Part shown: positions 2,714-24,293 of the stretch, piece by piece
Position numbering within the stretch: the stretch's first letter is position 1
Layout of the letters: every line of letters starts with the position of its first letter
Origin: a virus
Direction: 5' to 3' (one strand)
Virus record (IMG/VR): IMGVR_UViG_3300000115_000005
DNA length: 64,000 nucleotides
The notes under the pieces: generated by a model
Told to the model about the DNA's origin: nothing
Database searches by the model: none
What the model saw: only the letters and a program-made list of their open reading frames with translations
Translations under genes and position numbers: made by a program

Positions 2714-3010
2714 TTATCTTCTCATATTTGCCTGATCTTTTGCTTCTTCATCCGTAAAAATAGGCACAGCGTTGCTTTTATGCAACGTACCAATGCCTTT
2801 CATATTACTACCAGTATAAACTTGATTGTCTTTTTTAACAGCCACACCTGCACCAGAATTGAGAGATGGATGTCTGTAAGTCTGCCTAGGAGGGCAGATT
2901 GATGTATCAATAGGAGATTTACGAGCTATTAATTTGACTTTTTTAGTCTTGTTTTTTAATAACATCTTTCTAGTCTTTTTAGACCATCTTTGACCTGTGT
3001 GAAACATCAT
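2714..3010 (-). CDS. Conserved T4-like phage hypothetical protein
   Basis: GIGTLHKSNAVPIF motif; start reassigned to ATG at 3010 after GAGG. Confidence 0.65.
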   Translation of the reverse strand: MMFHTGQRWSKKTRKMLLKNKTKKVKLIARKSPIDTSICPPRQTYRHPSLNSGAGVAVKKDNQVYTGSNMKGIGTLHKSNAVPIFTDEEAKDQANMRR

Positions 3011-3029
3011 AATATATTTAATCCTCAAT

Positions 3030-3290
3030 AAAAAATAAAATGTTTGTTGGAGGCTCACCAAGACTAAGAATCGTCATTCAACTTGTATTACTACTCCAAC
3101 AAACAAAAAAAAGTTTCGTAGTTAGGTATTGTCTTGGCCTCTTAAGAAGGAGATTTTTCGTCCTCCGCCGACAACTTTTTATCTCAAACAGTTGTTACTA
3201 CTATGTTTCTACCTAACTACCATTTCGATTTATCTGACTTGATATGCTTGATTTAAGACTTACAATCTTTTAGAACTATCTCAACTGTTA
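3030..3290 (-). ncRNA. Candidate structured ncRNA locus 1 (two stem-closed modules)
   Basis: Perfect inverted repeats at 3118-3128/3210-3220 (11 bp) and 3041-3052/3094-3105 (12 bp), each followed by a U-tract on the minus strand; no credible ORF; promoter directly upstream. Confidence 0.55.
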
Positions 3291-3295
3291 AAACC

Positions 3296-3324
3296 ATTTT
3301 ATAGGCATATTGATGAAATGTCAA
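3296..3324 (-). promoter_or_regulatory. Early sigma70-type promoter
   Basis: TTGACA-17-TAAAAT. Confidence 0.8.
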
Positions 3325-3353
3325 CAGCTAATTTATGTTGTATTTTTGCAACA

Positions 3354-3533
3354 TTACCCTTGCAATAAACCTCTATGGTCAGTCTGTTCAAAAATTTGTC
3401 TACCTTTATCATCAAATTTTAATTTTAATAAATCCGATATTTCATTTTGTAACTCACTTACACCAGCTCTTGATGTAGAGATTTGACTATAAAGTTCATT
3501 TATTCTTTGATCGACCTCGGCTTTAGTTTTCAT
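3354..3533 (-). CDS. Small coiled-coil hypothetical protein (59 aa)
   Basis: Manual translation MKTKAEVDQRINELYSQISTSRAGVSELQNEISDLLK...; AGGAGG upstream. Confidence 0.55.
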   Translation of the reverse strand: MKTKAEVDQRINELYSQISTSRAGVSELQNEISDLLKLKFDDKGRQIFEQTDHRGLLQG

Positions 3534-4220: not shown

Positions 4221-5145
4221 TCTTTTTGTGCCAATCGTATGCTGTTCGTATTATCTCAACAATATCATAATTTGGTCGAAAATTTAAAATATCACTAGCC
4301 TTTGAAATATCTGCGACTAAGTTAGATGGGTCACCTTTTCTTTTTTTACCTATTTCGTATCTTATATCTAACCTGCAATAATCTCTAATTAGTGCTATAA
4401 TTTCTTTTATAGAATACCCAGCACCAAACCCTAAATTAAAAGTGTCAGACTTACCACCTTTATTAAGGTAATCTCTAGCACTTAGATGTGCTTTTGCTAT
4501 ATCAGTTACATGAACATAGTCACGAACACAGGTGCCATCAGATGTATTATAGGTATCTCCGTTTATCACAAAGTTATTTATTTTATTAAAAATTACTGGT
4601 ATTAGATGAGTTTCTGGTTCATGACATTCACCCATTTCACCATCTGGATCTGCACCAGCAAGATTGAAAAAACGAAATATTACATGATTCAGCCCAGAAT
4701 CACGAATAAGACTTTCAGCAGCTATTTTGGTATTTGCATATGGATTATTAAACGCTATATCGTCAGTTTCTTTTAGAGGTCTATCTTTTGCCTTATAGAC
4801 ACCAGCACTTGATGAATAAACTATATTTTTTACACCAAATACCTTCATAAACTTAATTAACTGTATAGTACCATTAACATTATCTTCCCAAAATTGTATA
4901 AGTTGGTCATACGATTCACTAATTTCTATTCGACCAGCTAAATGAAAAACCGTATCAACACCAGATCGTAGAATCGGTACTAATTCTCTTGGTTCTTTAC
5001 TAAGGTCTTGAATAACTTTTCTGTGATAGTATTTACAGTCAGTATTTTCCTTATCTAAACATATAACAAAATGACCAGCTTGATTTAATTCTTTTGCTAT
5101 GTGTTTACCAAGATAACCTGCACCACCTGTAACTAAAACTCTCAT
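4207..5145 (-). CDS. galE: UDP-glucose 4-epimerase
   Basis: TGGAGYLG, YANTK, FFNLAGADP, PETHLIP, DGTCVRDYVHV. Confidence 0.92.
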   Translation of the reverse strand: MRVLVTGGAGYLGKHIAKELNQAGHFVICLDKENTDCKYYHRKVIQDLSKEPRELVPILRSGVDTVFHLAGRIEISESYDQLIQFWEDNVNGTIQLIKFMKVFGVKNIVYSSSAGVYKAKDRPLKETDDIAFNNPYANTKIAAESLIRDSGLNHVIFRFFNLAGADPDGEMGECHEPETHLIPVIFNKINNFVINGDTYNTSDGTCVRDYVHVTDIAKAHLSARDYLNKGGKSDTFNLGFGAGYSIKEIIALIRDYCRLDIRYEIGKKRKGDPSNLVADISKASDILNFRPNYDIVEIIRTAYDWHKKNVKR

Positions 5146-5645
5146 GAGTCCCTAAGTGAAGTAATTGGTTTTTTAACTGGCCACCAAATGTTGTGAGCTT
5201 CTTCATCATTCCAACGAATTGTAAATTGATTATTATAATTATGATAAGAGTCTAATTTATAACTAAACACAGCATGGTCAGACATAACAACATGACCATT
5301 ACCAAATTTAGGTGGTATTAGAACCTGTTTTTTATTTGCATCTGATAATGTGAAAGATGCCCATTGTTTATACTGAGGTGACTCTGGATCATTATTTAAA
5401 ACAACAAGGTAAATAGAACCATATAAACATGAAACAAGTTTAGTTGTACAATCATCACCGTGTATACCACGCAAAACGTGTTTTCTTGATGAACTTATAC
5501 TATCAACAACCCAATCTCTTACTACTATGGTTTCTTCATACACCTTTTTATTAAAAGACTCTATATTGTGTCCTCTAAAATCTTCAAATATAGCTGGTGG
5601 TGTAAGTACAAAAACATTATTTAATTCTGTGAAATCAACTTGCAT
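5142..5645 (-). CDS. rmlC: dTDP-4-dehydrorhamnose 3,5-epimerase family protein
   Basis: FEDFRG, VLRGIH, IPPKFGNGH, IRWND. Confidence 0.85.
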   Translation of the reverse strand: MQVDFTELNNVFVLTPPAIFEDFRGHNIESFNKKVYEETIVVRDWVVDSISSSRKHVLRGIHGDDCTTKLVSCLYGSIYLVVLNNDPESPQYKQWASFTLSDANKKQVLIPPKFGNGHVVMSDHAVFSYKLDSYHNYNNQFTIRWNDEEAHNIWWPVKKPITSLRDS

Positions 5646-5654
5646 AATATATTA

Positions 5655-6449
5655 TCACTTTATAATTGATATTTGTGGTCCAATGTGAGCTATTGTATCA
5701 ACTTCTTTTGTCCAAGGATATTTACCATTATATCTTTTTTTGTTTTGAGAGTTACCTTTATCAAAGAAATCTTTACCAACCGAATTGGGATTAGACTCAC
5801 CTTTACCTGTATTATTATCTAAGCGATAGCATAAGGTATGTTTATTCGTACAGGTATAATTTGGATATTGTAACTTCAAGTTGTGGAAAAATTGTCTATC
5901 AGCACCCCATTGCCCGTACCAAGAGTGTCCAATGCTAGTAGCAATATCACGCTTAACAATAAAAGATGAGGTGTCAATGTGATATACTTGATCATCAAAA
6001 TATACAGGCCATTTACCAAGGGATTCGCAATTATCTTCACATACAAACTTTTCATTCTGATCATAAATTTTTCGTAATGAGTACGCCCAATCTGCTCCAT
6101 CTTTTATTTTCTCCACTAATCGTTTTACATGATCTGGTTCAAACCAGTTATCTTCATCAAGATAACATATTAAATCAGCATTTACAAGAAAAGAACAGGC
6201 AGAATACGCTCTATGCCCATACCAACCTTTTCCAACATTATCTTGTAGTGATATTGTTTTAACTGGTATTTTAATTTCTTTTTTTAATCTTTCTCTATTT
6301 CCTATAGCCCATTCACAGGCGGATTTATGTTCTTCACCATCTATAAAAACATAATGAACTATGTCAAGATACTCTTGATTTTGTATTGATTCTAAACACG
6401 TTGTCAAACAATCTTGACCTATCGTTGGTGTAACTACGGCTACTTTCAT
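5655..6449 (-). CDS. Glycosyltransferase family 2
   Basis: VAVVTPT...SIQNQ, YLDEDNW DxD motif, GADR. Confidence 0.85.
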   Translation of the reverse strand: MKVAVVTPTIGQDCLTTCLESIQNQEYLDIVHYVFIDGEEHKSACEWAIGNRERLKKEIKIPVKTISLQDNVGKGWYGHRAYSACSFLVNADLICYLDEDNWFEPDHVKRLVEKIKDGADWAYSLRKIYDQNEKFVCEDNCESLGKWPVYFDDQVYHIDTSSFIVKRDIATSIGHSWYGQWGADRQFFHNLKLQYPNYTCTNKHTLCYRLDNNTGKGESNPNSVGKDFFDKGNSQNKKRYNGKYPWTKEVDTIAHIGPQISIIK

Positions 6450-9762: not shown

Positions 9763-9908
9763 AGAAGTTAAAAGATTTTAAAAAAGAAATTACACAAAGA
9801 AATTTAGTACATTTAAATGCTCCTAAATCGGGTGCAGGTAAACACTCAGATCGTAAAAGACAAACGAAACAAGGTTATATGAAACATAAAGGAAAAATGT
9901 ATGGCTGA
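9759..9908 (+). CDS. Small basic protein (49 aa, not in ORF track)
   Basis: MKKLKDFKKEITQRNLVHLNAPKSGAGKHSDRKRQTKQGYMKHKGKMYG; overlaps both neighbours. Confidence 0.6.
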   Translation: MKKLKDFKKEITQRNLVHLNAPKSGAGKHSDRKRQTKQGYMKHKGKMYG

Positions 9909-12606
9909 TCAATATGGAAATTTTAGTTTATTCTCAAAAAAAAATATAGCTCGGCCAACAGGTTATCAATATCCTGTAGGATTAACTACTTTTTCAGAAG
10001 GCGGCGTTCCAACTGCAAACGCAGCCACAAATTCAACTGGCGGAACTCAAACAGTTAATGGTTCTATTGCTGTTCACACTTTTGATAGTTCAGCCACTTT
10101 TGTTCCTAAATTTGATGGGTTTGTTAATTTTCTTGTAGTTGGCGGAGGTGCTGGAGGTGCAGGTAACTTAGGTGGTGGTGGAGGTGCAGGTGGTGTTAGA
10201 CAAGGTATACTTTATGTAACAGAAGATACAACATACAATGTTTCTGTTGGTGGTGGAGGAGCTGGCGGAGGAACTGGAAGTGATGGAACAAATGGTGCAA
10301 ACGGAACTAATTCTATGTTCGCAACTGTTAGTTCATCAGGTGGAGGGTATGGTGCTCAAGGAGGCGGTGGTTCTCCAAACTCTGAAAACGGAGCTTTAGG
10401 TGGTTCAGGCGGAGGTGCAGGAGGATATGCAGCTGATAGAGATGGTGGTTTCGGTAATAAAGGTCTTATTTTTCCAGTAGAGGGTCATGATGGTGGTAGA
10501 GGTGATTCAGCTGGAGCAGCTCTTGGAGCTGGTGGCGGAGGCGGAGGTGCTGGAGCACCAGGCGGTGATAGTATTGGAGGTAGTCCTGGAGGTTCAGTTC
10601 CAAAAATGGGTTTTTCTCATGGTGGTGCAGGAGTAAATTCAAGTATAGATTTCACATCTACTGCTTATGGAGGTGGAGGTGGCGGAGGAATATATGGTCC
10701 AGCTAGCAGCTCACCGGCTGGACTTCCAGGATTTCCACAAGGCGGAGCCGGTGGTGGCGGTAATGGAGGATATGCTAGTGTAGCAGGTGTTGCAGGCACT
10801 ACGAATCGTGGTGGAGGCGGAGGCGGTGGAGGATATCCTGGTTCTGCTGGAGGTGCAGGCGGTTCAGGACGAATTATTATAAGTTACAATTCAACACAGG
10901 GTACTGGAACTGCAAACGGTTTTCCAGGATCTACTGGCGGTACAAAAACAACATCAAATGCTTATGCTGTTCATAAATTTACATCATCTGGAACTTTTGT
11001 TCCAGATTTTGATGGTTCGCTTGAAGCTTTAATTATTGCAGGAGGTGGAGGTAGTGGAAATGGTAATGGCGGTGGCGGTGGTGCAGGTGGTGTTTTATTA
11101 AAACAAGGAATAGCAGTTACAGATGGAACATCATATACTATAACAGTTGGTGATGGAGGAGCAGGTTCTTCTCCTGCTACAGCTACCTCTGCTGGAGCTA
11201 ACGGTGCTAATTCAGGTTTCGGTGATACTTACTATGCTCAAGGTGGTGGAGGTGGTGGGGGTGGTTATAATCCAGGTACTCACGGACGTGGTATGAGTGG
11301 AGGTTCCGGCGGCGGTGCTGGATATACCGGACCTAATGTTGGTGGTCTTGGTACTGATCATCAAGGAACAGCAGGCGCTAGTGCTCCAGCTTCCAATCGA
11401 CCTGCTGGTGGAGGTGGTGCAACTCAAGCAGGTCATGAGGGATCTGCTGGTACAGGTGGAAAAGGTGGCGATGGATTTTATTCTAATTTTGAAAATGAAG
11501 CTGTTACTGTTGCTTATGCAGGTGGTGGCGGAGGTGGAGCTGCTACACCTGGTGCAGGAGGTATAGGAGGTGGCGGTGCTGGGGGAGCTGCTGGCACAGC
11601 AAATCGTGGTGGCGGAGGCGGAGGCGGTGCGCCCAGTGCTGTTGGCCAAGCTGGCGGTTCAGGTGTTGTAATTGTAAGATACGCTAGAACTAACCAACCA
11701 GGAATTGTGTCACAAGGTGGTTCATCAACTGGCGGAACTATAAGCCTTCCGGGTGATGGTTATAGAGTGCATACTTTTAATAGTCCTGCAACATTTACAC
11801 CTTCAGAAGATATGGAAGTAGATTATCTAATCGTAGGTGGTGGCGGTGGTGGAGGTGGTAATTATAATGGTGGAGGTGGCGGCGCCGGTGGGTTAGTTTA
11901 TAGAGAACAACAATCAGTAACAGGCGGTACAGGATACCCAGTTGTTATTGGTGCTGGTGGAGCTGCAGGAAACGGACCACCAAATACTGCTGGAGCTAAC
12001 GGATCAAACTCTGTTGCATTTTCAGTAACAGCACTCGGAGGTGGAGGCGGTGGTCACTATGATGGACCAGGAGGTAGAGGTGGTGGTTCTGGAGGTGGCG
12101 GTGTTGGAGGACCAGGAGCCTCTAGACCTGGAGCACTTGCAGGATTAAGTTTTCAAGCTGCTACCGGAATTGGAGGAGCAGGTAGTTCAGGAGGTGGTGG
12201 TGTAATCGTAGATTGGGGTGCTTCAGGTGGCGGAGGCGGTGCTGGTGGAAAAGGTAGTACAGGTCATGCCGCTGCCCGTAACGGACCTGGAGGTGGAGGT
12301 TTAGCTTTCAACATATCAGGAGATATGGTAGGTTATGCCGGTGGCGGAGGTGCTGGTTCAACACCGAATGGTGTTACCGGAGGAATAGGTGGTTTCGGAG
12401 GTGGAGCTAATGGCGCCTCTCAAGCTGCAACCGTAGATGCAATTGCGAATCGAGGTGGTGGAGGTGGAGGTGGTTACACACCAGCTTCACCAGCTGGGGG
12501 ATCAGCCGGAGGTTCAGGTGTTGTAATTGTAAGATATAAACAAAGTAAAGTTCAAACAGCAGAAGAAAAATATTCTATTGGCGGTGCAACGGGAGGTCCG
12601 GTATAA
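9901..12606 (+). CDS. Glycine-rich repeat protein (three domains), probable virion fibre/decoration
   Basis: Three units HxF.S..TF.P...L(V/I)(V/I)GGG ... GGSG.(V/I)I(V/I).Y; 26-nt exact DNA repeat at 11656-11681 and 12511-12536. Confidence 0.75.
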   Translation: MADQYGNFSLFSKKNIARPTGYQYPVGLTTFSEGGVPTANAATNSTGGTQTVNGSIAVHTFDSSATFVPKFDGFVNFLVVGGGAGGAGNLGGGGGAGGVRQGILYVTEDTTYNVSVGGGGAGGGTGSDGTNGANGTNSMFATVSSSGGGYGAQGGGGSPNSENGALGGSGGGAGGYAADRDGGFGNKGLIFPVEGHDGGRGDSAGAALGAGGGGGGAGAPGGDSIGGSPGGSVPKMGFSHGGAGVNSSIDFTSTAYGGGGGGGIYGPASSSPAGLPGFPQGGAGGGGNGGYASVAGVAGTTNRGGGGGGGGYPGSAGGAGGSGRIIISYNSTQGTGTANGFPGSTGGTKTTSNAYAVHKFTSSGTFVPDFDGSLEALIIAGGGGSGNGNGGGGGAGGVLLKQGIAVTDGTSYTITVGDGGAGSSPATATSAGANGANSGFGDTYYAQGGGGGGGGYNPGTHGRGMSGGSGGGAGYTGPNVGGLGTDHQGTAGASAPASNRPAGGGGATQAGHEGSAGTGGKGGDGFYSNFENEAVTVAYAGGGGGGAATPGAGGIGGGGAGGAAGTANRGGGGGGGAPSAVGQAGGSGVVIVRYARTNQPGIVSQGGSSTGGTISLPGDGYRVHTFNSPATFTPSEDMEVDYLIVGGGGGGGGNYNGGGGGAGGLVYREQQSVTGGTGYPVVIGAGGAAGNGPPNTAGANGSNSVAFSVTALGGGGGGHYDGPGGRGGGSGGGGVGGPGASRPGALAGLSFQAATGIGGAGSSGGGGVIVDWGASGGGGGAGGKGSTGHAAARNGPGGGGLAFNISGDMVGYAGGGGAGSTPNGVTGGIGGFGGGANGASQAATVDAIANRGGGGGGGYTPASPAGGSAGGSGVVIVRYKQSKVQTAEEKYSIGGATGGPV

Positions 12607-21613: not shown

Positions 21614-21724
21614 TTAAAAAATCCCATAAGTTTTCAACATAATTAAAGTAGTGCTTGTTGCAATTGTACTAATCGCAATTGTATGAACTATTTGACAGAT
21701 TTTATCTCTCGTATCCTTCTTCAT
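21614..21724 (-). CDS. Small TM peptide B (36 aa)
   Basis: MKKDTRDKICQIVHTIAISTIATSTTLIMLKTYGIF; GGAG RBS; paralog of the upstream peptide. Confidence 0.65.
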   Translation of the reverse strand: MKKDTRDKICQIVHTIAISTIATSTTLIMLKTYGIF

Positions 21725-21819
21725 AAAACTCCATAAGTCCTTAACATAATGAGTGATGTATTGATAGCCACACAGGTGACTGAAAATGCACTAATTGTTA
21801 AACATATTTTCTGATACAT
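21721..21819 (-). CDS. Small TM peptide A (32 aa)
   Basis: MYQKICLTISAFSVTCVAINTSLIMLRTYGVL; GGAGA RBS. Confidence 0.65.
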   Translation of the reverse strand: MYQKICLTISAFSVTCVAINTSLIMLRTYGVL

Positions 21820-21876: not shown

Positions 21877-22091
21877 CGCACATTTGGTTTTTTAAAGAAA
21901 CCGACCACGCACCGTGGGAAAACTTCTTGTTATTAGAGTTTATTCTTTCTGAAGAAAAACCCTGCCATGATAGGCTAAAAACGACAATAGGCTTGAGTTG
22001 TTACTACTGTTCTGCATTTGCGTTTTACAGAAGCTCTTTGTATCAAGGTATCTCGGATATCGCACATTACCTCTGACCCTTAAAATTAGAT

Positions 22092-22208
22092 TCGTCTATA
22101 AGGGGATTTGAACCCCCATCTTCAAAGCGATCAACTTTGACGTTTTAATAGCTAAAGAACCACTATTCTAGGAAGTATTACTACTTCATCATTAAACTAT
22201 ATACAACG
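22092..22208 (-). ncRNA. tRNA-like RNA (GAU anticodon loop) with 48-nt D-loop
   Basis: T arm GGGGG-UUCAAAU-CCCCU; anticodon arm UCAAAG-UUGAUCG-CUUUGA; D stem GUUU/AAAC; imperfect acceptor stem; no encoded CCA. Confidence 0.65.
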
Positions 22209-22368
22209 TTTTTTTACACCGAGTTTTCCCTATCATGTTTCGGATAGATGCTTGATGCTGAATCTAATACAATCATAACAACTCAAATTCTTAAAATCTT
22301 TATAAATTAAGACTGATGCACCAGTTCTATTCTCTTACGAGGTAGACGTTTTCTTAATCTATGAGTCC

Positions 22369-22397
22369 ATTCTATATGAGTATGTATAAAATGTCAA
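22369..22397 (-). promoter_or_regulatory. Early sigma70-type promoter
   Basis: TTGACA-17-TAGAAT-GGACTCATAG. Confidence 0.85.
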
Positions 22398-22734
22398 CAG
22401 CTAATTTCAATTACTTCTAGTACCTGTTGTTGTTGTAAAAGTACTACAAGTACCACGAAAACCATGAAGTACCATCATAACATAGAGTGGCCTAAGTGTG
22501 AGGTAAAGTCCCAAAGATACTACGAAAAAAGGTACCGAGTGATTTTTCCACCGGAAAAAAATTAAGTGGTGCTTTAGTGGAGGGAATCAATTTTCGACCA
22601 GAGTAAAACAAAATCTAAGGATCACTAGGGGGTCTGTCGTGCTGGGGTGGGTAACTCTGCCAACTGTATATGGGGGGCTGCAGCGACCATGTAGCTTGCC
22701 TACCGACCGAAAAAAGACTCTTCGGCCGAAGTAT

Positions 22735-23007
22735 TCAGGATCTATTTTGAACACCGTAGTCCATGAATCCGTTTGTACCACACCACCAGTCCCAAGCTTG
22801 GGTCTGTGTCTTGAATGGGCCATGTGGACCTGGATCGGCATCTTGACCGGCATCTATGATCCAATAATCGCCGACCGCATGGTCTTGGACAATGATTGGA
22901 TTCCATGGACCGGAATCTTTAGATGGTTGGTAGACCACATCATGGTCACCTAGTTGATCTTGAATGAAACCACTGGTAGGTAATGTTGGATGGTTAATCT
23001 GTATCAT
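22735..23007 (-). CDS. Hypothetical early protein (GC-richer segment)
   Basis: AGGA RBS; HGPF.T...A motif. Confidence 0.55.
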   Translation of the reverse strand: MIQINHPTLPTSGFIQDQLGDHDVVYQPSKDSGPWNPIIVQDHAVGDYWIIDAGQDADPGPHGPFKTQTQAWDWWCGTNGFMDYGVQNRS

Positions 23008-24124: not shown

Positions 24125-24258
24125 AATAAAAAAATGAGAGAAAGTGCCAGTTTAAATTCCAGTTGATGTTTCCAGATATCCTAAGATAAGCAGTTAATCT
24201 AAACATCATTCAGTTAAATTCTAATCTAATTCAGTTAATCTAACTTTCTCTCTACTGT
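24125..24258 (-). ncRNA. Candidate sRNA locus 3 with five AACUG repeats
   Basis: 10-bp closing stem 24136-24145/24243-24252, U-tract, promoter immediately upstream. Confidence 0.6.
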
Positions 24259-24264
24259 GGAACC

Positions 24265-24293
24265 ATTGTATCTGAGTATTGCCCAATTGTCAA
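24265..24293 (-). promoter_or_regulatory. Early promoter
   Basis: TTGACA-17-TACAAT-GGTTCCACAG. Confidence 0.85.

Follow-up and report, generated by a model that had tools for sequence, protein, structure and literature searches.

A gene-free stretch in the genome of an uncultured marine T4-like phage appears, as far as sequence comparison can tell, to encode a real, conserved and knotted non-coding RNA that is provided with an early promoter of its own. We analysed 64,000 nucleotides of this phage (IMG/VR record IMGVR_UViG_3300000115_000005), which are called the window here. The features of the locus and the surrounding genes in this part of the window all lie on the minus strand (Table 1). 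It is probable that the locus forms one early transcription unit, in which a consensus sigma-70 promoter is followed by a structured RNA (RNA-1) and by a second stem-closed element (module 2). On balance we also favour the view that RNA-1, in this early and non-coding minus-strand unit, is an autonomous structured RNA gene. A first-pass annotation of the window had placed two stem-closed modules with U-tracts here and had compared them with another locus at about 22 kb. Its coordinates were all exact, the stems and U-tracts are as it described them, and its view that both loci are non-coding was borne out.

Table 1. Features of the RNA-1 locus and the motif copies at the 22-kb locus, in window coordinates.
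Feature	Position	Strand	Description
Upstream gene	ends at 3354		59 aa
Palindrome TGTTG-N8-CAACA	3336..3353	.	just 5' of the promoter
Early sigma-70-type promoter	3296..3324	-	-35 TTGACA at 3319-3324, 17-nt spacer, -10 TAAAAT at 3296-3301
RNA-1	3113..3289	-	177-nt structured non-coding RNA, from predicted +1 (AACAGUUGAG) to GAAAC past the closing stem
P0 5' strand	3282..3289	-	5'-terminal AACAGUUG of RNA-1, exact complement of CAACUGUU
P1 5' strand GUAGUUAGGUA	3210..3220	-	10-11 bp; three positions compensatory in L049 and L051
13-mer AGUAGUAACAACU	3190..3202	-	AGUAGUAA is a variable single-stranded joiner; CAACU (with GUU to 3187) is the P0 3' strand
Core domain P2', P3, P4	3129..3175	-	RNAalifold consensus
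P1 3' strand UACCUAACUAC	3118..3128	-	pairs with 3210-3220
U8 tract	3105..3112	-	3' of RNA-1
Module 2	3042..3104	-	63-nt element, 11-bp closing stem GUUUGUUGGAG/CUCCAACAAAC
Second U-rich tract	3026..3041	-	AUUUUAUUUUUUAUU; followed by tRNA-Met(CAU) in relatives, not in the window
Downstream gene	2714..3010	-	98 aa, phrog_27048, unknown function; ATG at 3010, GAGGA ribosome-binding site
Second 13-mer copy	21996..22008	-	3' strand of a long-range closing helix; partner GAGUUGUUAUGAUUGU (22271-22286); minimum-free-energy fold
Second 11-mer copy	22175..22185	-	hairpin GAAGUA-GUAA-UACUUC in a 44-nt D-loop insertion of a tRNA-like domain (22093-22206)

No open reading frame is conserved in RNA-1; its sole AUG opens a frame of four codons and is replaced by ACG in two of the relatives (L046 and L047). 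ARAGORN found no tRNA over positions 2950-3400, and RNA-1 has neither a cloverleaf nor a T-arm. At the gathering threshold of Rfam 15 the whole window gave only two tRNA matches, none of them at RNA-1, and when E values up to 10 were admitted the locus gave only chance snoRNA matches and no match to the tRNA model. A DNA similarity search against 50,697 INPHARED phage records returned nothing for this locus or for the 22-kb locus. The 5' end of RNA-1 was predicted from the promoter spacing and from the point where conservation begins. The palindrome ahead of the promoter is kept in relatives with minor changes (TGTTGTAAAAATACAACA), and it is not a terminator because an A-run, not a U-run, comes next on the transcribed strand.

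Relatives were collected as 40 viral contigs by means of the downstream protein, and more were obtained with a DNA pattern of the RNA core in viral and metagenome collections. A looser version of the core pattern added one true homologue (L051) among the viral contigs, together with five chance matches in coding regions. The 10 distinct variants of RNA-1 fall into three size classes: a short form of 117-119 nt (L049, L051), a medium form of 177 nt (the window, L045, L065, L071) and a long form of 229 nt (L044, L046, L047, L059, L060). The medium and long forms carry a 58-nt insertion past the first 10 nt, and the long form additionally has a 52-nt hairpin in the joiner. A covariance model of the RNA (R1) scores the copy in the window at 226.7 bits; a diverged RNA-1 (118 bits) is found in G086, a 144-kb relative, where it lies elsewhere in the genome, under a promoter of its own, and is not accompanied by a tRNA. 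More distant relatives have no match to R1 and show no gap at the syntenic site. Beyond these phages, the exact core 20-mer was absent from 185,579 species genomes, R1 found nothing in 61 Pelagibacterales genomes in a run that had strict filters and no positive control, and R1 had no match in phage Melnitz. A 26-bit match of R1 in HTVC008M was rejected, as it lies inside an annotated CDS. It appears from these comparisons that RNA-1 is a small uncatalogued family, with no Rfam match and with one covarying core that comprises P1, P2', P3, P4 and P0.

In the core, P1 is followed by GAAAC and U8, and P2' (GUUGUC/GACAAU) is stacked on P1 along one continuous 3' strand, as indicated by RNAalifold and manual inspection. 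P3 is GGC/GCC, and P4 is GGAGGA/UCCUUC with a 9-nt loop, CGAAAAAUC; compensatory changes occur at two positions of P4 (AU to CG and GC to AU). The pseudoknot P0, in which the 5' end AACAGUUG pairs with CAACUGUU (3187-3194) in the large joiner, can form in 10 of 10 variants. In G086 it reads GAUGGUUG/CAACUGUC, with one compensatory change and two wobble changes, and over the eight medium and long variants there is one compensatory change. In alignment A8, 99.4% of the cells are paired and six pairs have changes on both sides, a number reached by none of 500 shuffles and compared with 0-2 in slid controls; the source of this covariation is three diverged sequences only (L049, L051 and G086), the remaining variants being nearly identical. 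Moreover, a local CAACU/AGUUG hairpin competes with P0 and tolerates the same substitutions equally. Because the diverged sequences are few and because of this competing hairpin, P0 is the best-supported pairing and yet is unproven. The unpaired segments of RNA-1 are conserved as strongly as the stems, and the invariant A-rich ones are UGAGAUAAAAA in the joiner and the P4 loop. Since both ends of RNA-1 would be buried in helices, the RNA should be stable. Two other structural readings were discarded. A leader hairpin AAGAUU/AGUCUU is unsupported, in that a pair is broken in L047 and L060 by a change from U to C with no compensation, and a hammerhead-like reading of CUGUUUGAG...CGAAA lacks both a stem II between its elements and an Rfam match.

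Three unrelated genome contexts contain RNA-1. The copies in L065 and L071 match that of the window at 176-177 of 177 positions (99%), and there RNA-1 has another promoter, another upstream gene and another second module, while the tRNA-Met that follows it differs at about 12 of 76 positions (about 84% identical). The identity starts exactly at the predicted +1 and stops at the U-tract, even between unrelated flanks, and the homologues are driven by three other upstream sequences. Among the relatives, no gene for a protein partner travels together with RNA-1. With its core kept, insertions at two fixed sites, and varied promoters and positions, RNA-1 behaves in these comparisons as what seems to be an autonomous and exchangeable RNA gene.

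A tRNA-Met(CAU) lies directly 3' of the RNA region in every RNA-1-bearing relative except G086, with no promoter in between, and the phage of the window has lost this tRNA at this locus. The unit resembles, by analogy of layout, a phage operon of tRNA and stable RNA minus its tRNA. Each of the two stems (that of module 2 pairs 3094-3104 with 3042-3052 and is followed by AUUUUAUUUUUU) encloses 40-80 nt and has a U-tract after it; a terminator scan calls neither, and expression of the downstream tRNA or gene needs read-through. These two elements cannot be sites of efficient termination. Neither the tRNA in the relatives nor the downstream gene here has a promoter to itself, so a longer transcript may be made and then processed. 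A pairing of the joiner with the anticodon loop of tRNA-Met was considered and rejected: it would hit positions 32-35 and not the anticodon, and it is lost in G086.

Module 2 is more changeable. Its closing stem covaries, from GGAG/CUCC to GAAG/CUUC in the L044-type relatives; the module has an extra 28 nt in the L045-type contigs, is missing from L047, L049, L051 and G086, and in L065 and L071 an unrelated stem-closed module takes its place. In L065 (minus strand, 5130-5205 and 4965-5040), the replacement module after RNA-1 has the direct repeat AUUGUAGUCAAGCC twice, and beyond the tRNA-Met there is another stem-closed module with a terminator-like end. In L060 (5453-5534, plus strand) the closing stem of module 2 is duplicated (GUUUGUUGGAGUAGU and GUUGAAGUAGUAAUAC ... 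CUUCAAC and CUUCCAACAAAC), as if by slippage, or by unequal recombination between a GGAG-type and a GAAG-type variant.

Such a layout might suggest that the stems act in cis only, as processing sites, 3'-end stabilisers, leaky terminators or insulators of a tRNA operon that lies amid late genes. Both elements are a stem and then a U-tract, the tRNA in most relatives follows without its own promoter, module 2 is swapped for other stem-closed hairpins, and P1, P2' and P3 together make a helix of about 20 bp, possibly a site for an RNase III-type enzyme. However, the window and G086 both retain RNA-1 in the absence of the tRNA, and the G086 copy has a promoter to itself. The unpaired segments of RNA-1 are conserved like its stems, it has a pseudoknot and takes insertions at fixed sites only, and it is far better conserved than the tRNA that it would supposedly serve. 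We therefore consider a purely cis-acting function unlikely; module 2 is a likelier candidate than RNA-1 for a role in processing or termination.

The first-pass annotation had proposed that the locus belongs with the 22-kb locus, firstly on account of the promoter. Both loci do lie under near-consensus early sigma-70-type promoters (TTGACA-17-TAAAAT and TTGACA-17-TAGAAT). The promoter of RNA-1 has 11 of 12 matches in the promoter scan and is identical at 31 of 41 positions to the one at 22369-22397. The 19-mer AAATTAGCTGTTGACATTT, which spans the -35 box plus 10 nt upstream, occurs at 3316-3334 and 22389-22407, and these are its sole two matches even when three mismatches are allowed. A promoter subtype special to the two loci, on the other hand, could not be upheld, since five further intergenic minus-strand promoters have the same core. 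The class consists of seven intergenic minus-strand promoters of the form TTGACAttt...TAnAATGGttt (at 3324, 18578, 22397, 24293, 25037, 25331 and 26801), and its extended consensus, including the start region, is TTGACAtttgggcaa ... TAnAATggtttcATAG. The shared 19-mer is the -35 and upstream part of this general early promoter class of the phage. Several promoters of the class have a palindrome of the TGTTG-N8-CAACA type on their 5' side, and in the relatives of the RNA-1 locus the palindrome is conserved.

One further promoter of the class (24265-24293) precedes a third, non-coding RNA of about 135 nt (24125-24260, minus strand), which is closed by GAGAGAAAGU/ACUUUCUCUC and a U-tract and has five or six copies of (U)UAACUG or AAACUG in a repetitive, sponge-like layout. 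Directly upstream of the promoter of the 22-kb RNA, about 330 nt (22410-22740, minus strand) are gene-free and relatively GC-rich, with GGUACU words repeated right before the promoter; this region could be an operator array or another structured RNA. Two adjacent paralogous mini-ORFs (21721-21818 and 21614-21724, minus strand) of about 32-36 aa follow the 22-kb RNA directly; they are hydrophobic and end in ...LIML(R/K)TYG(V/I)(L/F). Elsewhere in the window, a 901-aa ORF (9901-12606, plus strand) has a glycine-rich domain (PF21722, E 1e-48); its GC content is 49%, compared to 32% for the genome, and its strand is opposite to that of its neighbours.

The 22-kb RNA itself has a closing helix that encloses a cassette of about 295 nt (21996-22290), and its tRNA-like domain (22093-22206) is an Rfam tRNA match of 30.5 bits. 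This tRNA-mimic cassette and RNA-1 have the same promoter class and both would be early; both use a long-range helix formed by ...CAACU and an AGUUG upstream of it, the two are marginally collinear over their 5' regions (z about 2.8; 20 of 1000 shuffles), and each is present or absent among relatives. RNA-1 is without a tRNA-like domain, unlike the cassette and the bacterial Y RNA YrlA, and nhmmer detected no similarity between the two loci outside the promoter. When the 22-kb locus and the third RNA were compared by nhmmer with all fetched loci, nothing was found outside the promoter either. All 29 hits of the second DNA pattern for the 22-kb locus were chance matches in coding sequence and were discarded.

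The two loci had been linked secondly by shared words. AGTAGTAACAACT occurs at 3190-3202 and 21996-22008, and AGTAGTAATAC at 3085-3095 and 22175-22185, all on the minus strand. AGTAGTAA would be expected 3.0 times in the window but is present in seven copies, each on the minus strand, a number that only 1 of 100 shuffles attained. Four of the seven are inside the two RNA loci, whose combined share of the window is 1.3% (binomial P about 9e-7, in a post hoc test). A shared run of at least 13 bases between the two RNAs was obtained in 4 of 400 dinucleotide shuffles, and two shared runs of at least 11 bases in 1 of 400. By these shuffles the two RNA loci share sequence beyond chance, only moderately so in such AT-rich sequence. 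Conservation of the motif in related phages, by contrast, was not found for the 13-mer, which reads GUGUUAGUAACAACU, AUAGCAGUAACGGCU or CGAGUAGCAACU in the homologues. Its AGUAGUAA half is GUGUUAGUAAC, AUAGCAGUAAC or CGAGUAGC there, with only AGUA[A/G]C kept, and its CAACU is base-paired to the 5' end of RNA-1 in 10 of 10 variants. For CAACU there is an ordinary explanation: in each RNA this end of the 13-mer forms one side of a helix whose other side is an AGUUG further upstream. The 11-mer AGUAGUAAUAC (3085-3095) falls in module 2, where the fold puts it in an internal loop beside the closing stem.

It could be argued that AGUAGUAA(Y)A is a shared site that another factor recognises, for example a defence sensor, an RNase or an RNA-binding protein of the phage, or that it serves pairing between the RNAs. 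The motif sharing exceeds chance, and module 2 of the L044 type has 14 nt (UGAAGUAGUAAUAC) in common with a hairpin of the window's 22-kb locus. The settings of the copies differ (helix strand, hairpin loop, internal loop, joiner), which fits recognition of the primary sequence, and the partner strand in the 22-kb RNA could equally pair with the 13-mer of RNA-1 in trans. However, 7 of 10 variants retain no more than AGUA[A/G]C of the RNA-1 copy, module 2 is dispensable, searches with two flanking proteins and two DNA patterns found no relatives of the 22-kb locus, and no complementary target was found in the window. A common site of this kind is therefore improbable in our opinion.

The shared words had also been interpreted in terms of Hfq, and here the host must be taken into account. 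The formate dehydrogenase of the phage is 78-82% identical to SAR11 copies, which are carried by about half of the SAR11 genomes sampled, and this identity indicates a SAR11 host. One core protein is nearest to that of the OM43 phage Melnitz (49% identity vs 40% for HTVC008M). Judging by the formate dehydrogenase, SAR11 is the likely host, and the Melnitz-like core protein makes this assignment a provisional one. In a distant relative (L030, IMGVR_UViG_3300042987_001940, 133 kb) we observed a two-piece permuted tmRNA of betaproteobacterial type at 5645-6023 on the plus strand (RF04321, 140 bits; RF01850, 116 bits; ARAGORN tag ANESVYKLAA), a hint that the host of the L030 lineage is a betaproteobacterium, possibly one of the OM43 type.

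According to the first-pass annotation, AGU-AGU-AAC-AAC is an (ARN)4 ligand of Hfq. In such a sponge, these tracts would bind the distal face of the host's Hfq and titrate it, as might be expected from four copies of AGUAGUAA across two early RNAs that both end in a stem and a U-tract, and from the three consecutive ARN triplets that are kept in every RNA-1 variant. However, we estimate that three consecutive ARN triplets occur about once by chance per 180-nt AT-rich RNA. The AGUAGUAA 8-mer varies across the 10 homologues, and the AAC-AAC part is paired within P0. Furthermore, a search with PF17209 found Hfq in none of four near-complete genomes and none of 81 Pelagibacterales genomes (G001-G081), nor in five related phage records, while it was positive in five control genomes, including E. 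coli, B. subtilis and Caulobacter; the SAR11 host indicated by the formate dehydrogenase would belong to the Hfq-less side. RNA-1 resembles the phage and prophage RNAs that act as Hfq-binding sponges or anti-sRNAs in being short, phage-encoded and endowed with A-rich tracts and a stem and U-tract at the end. It differs from them in that the likely host order shows no Hfq in the 81 genomes searched and in that its ARN tract is neither conserved nor fully single-stranded. Because no Hfq was found in the genomes searched and the motif is unconserved and partly base-paired, Hfq titration is very unlikely, and AGUAGUAA seems to be lineage-specific and not a conserved Hfq site. The Hfq-sponge annotation was tempting but wrong, and it is removed here.

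A different possibility is that RNA-1 regulates by base pairing, with the joiner UGAGAUAAAAA or the loop as a seed against host or phage mRNAs. Invariant unpaired segments, predicted early expression and a protected 5' end would suit such a regulator, but there is no convincing complementary site on the transcribed strands of the window, and G086 departs from the candidate seed at three positions. We give this possibility only a slim chance.

The reading that we prefer, tentatively and with less than even confidence, is that RNA-1 is a putative stable early RNA that binds or titrates a protein. We prefer it because of the buried ends, the invariant A-rich unpaired segments and the insertions at fixed sites, and because RNA-1 has its own strong early promoter and is conserved far above the adjacent tRNA. 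In this scheme, the host RNA polymerase would start at the near-consensus sigma-70 promoter and transcribe RNA-1 early in infection. The first 8 nt would then fold back on CAACUGUU in the joiner and form P0, so that both ends of RNA-1 become buried. RNA-1 would be followed by the optional stem-closed hairpin module and U-tract and, in relatives, by the tRNA-Met(CAU). The RNA may then bind or titrate a host or phage protein by means of its invariant A-rich segments, UGAGAUAAAAA and CGAAAAAUC.

In genomic role, the nearest known counterpart to RNA-1 comes from T4, although it is not homologous. T4-type phages make small stable RNAs beside their tRNA genes, for which no function has been found (PMC3014915), and the function of T4 RNAC and RNAD is unknown (PMC3014915, PMC9697503). 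Like T4 RNAC (species 1) and RNAD (species 2), RNA-1 would be a non-coding stable-RNA gene that adjoins tRNA genes in T4-like phages; its co-transcription with the tRNA is probable, as judged from the gene order, and a terminal helix closes the ends (PMC3014915, PMC9697503). On the other hand, R1 with its filters off detected nothing at T4 rnaC or rnaD, and local alignments were within the shuffle range. T4 RNAC carries a T-arm of the tRNA type, while nothing in RNA-1 is tRNA-like, and RNA-1 has its own early promoter, whereas T4 RNAC and RNAD are reported as late RNAs (PMC9697503). T4 rnaC contains GAGUAGC twice and has AUGGUUGAGAU in common with the 5' end of the RNA in G086; the scores are within the shuffle range, and we dismissed this likeness as chance.

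The conservation of RNA-1, far tighter than that of the adjacent tRNA, argues for a real trans-acting role. The absence of Hfq from 81 Pelagibacterales genomes bears on any sRNA hypothesis for SAR11 or SAR11 phages; as SAR11 has no detectable Hfq in the genomes searched, the RNAs of phage and host must use other partners. It is conceivable, though doubtful, that RNA-1 and this phage's other early stem-closed RNAs are horizontally exchanged 'takeover' RNAs, each acting as a stable decoy or scaffold for some factor of a regulator-poor, Hfq-less SAR11 host, with the AGUAGUAA-type elements as a handle for a shared binding protein or nuclease. If this were true, they would represent a new class of phage RNA effectors and a route into the 50-year-old question posed by RNAs of the T4 RNAC/RNAD type. 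The locus adds an uncatalogued family of apparently pseudoknotted RNAs from abundant marine phages.
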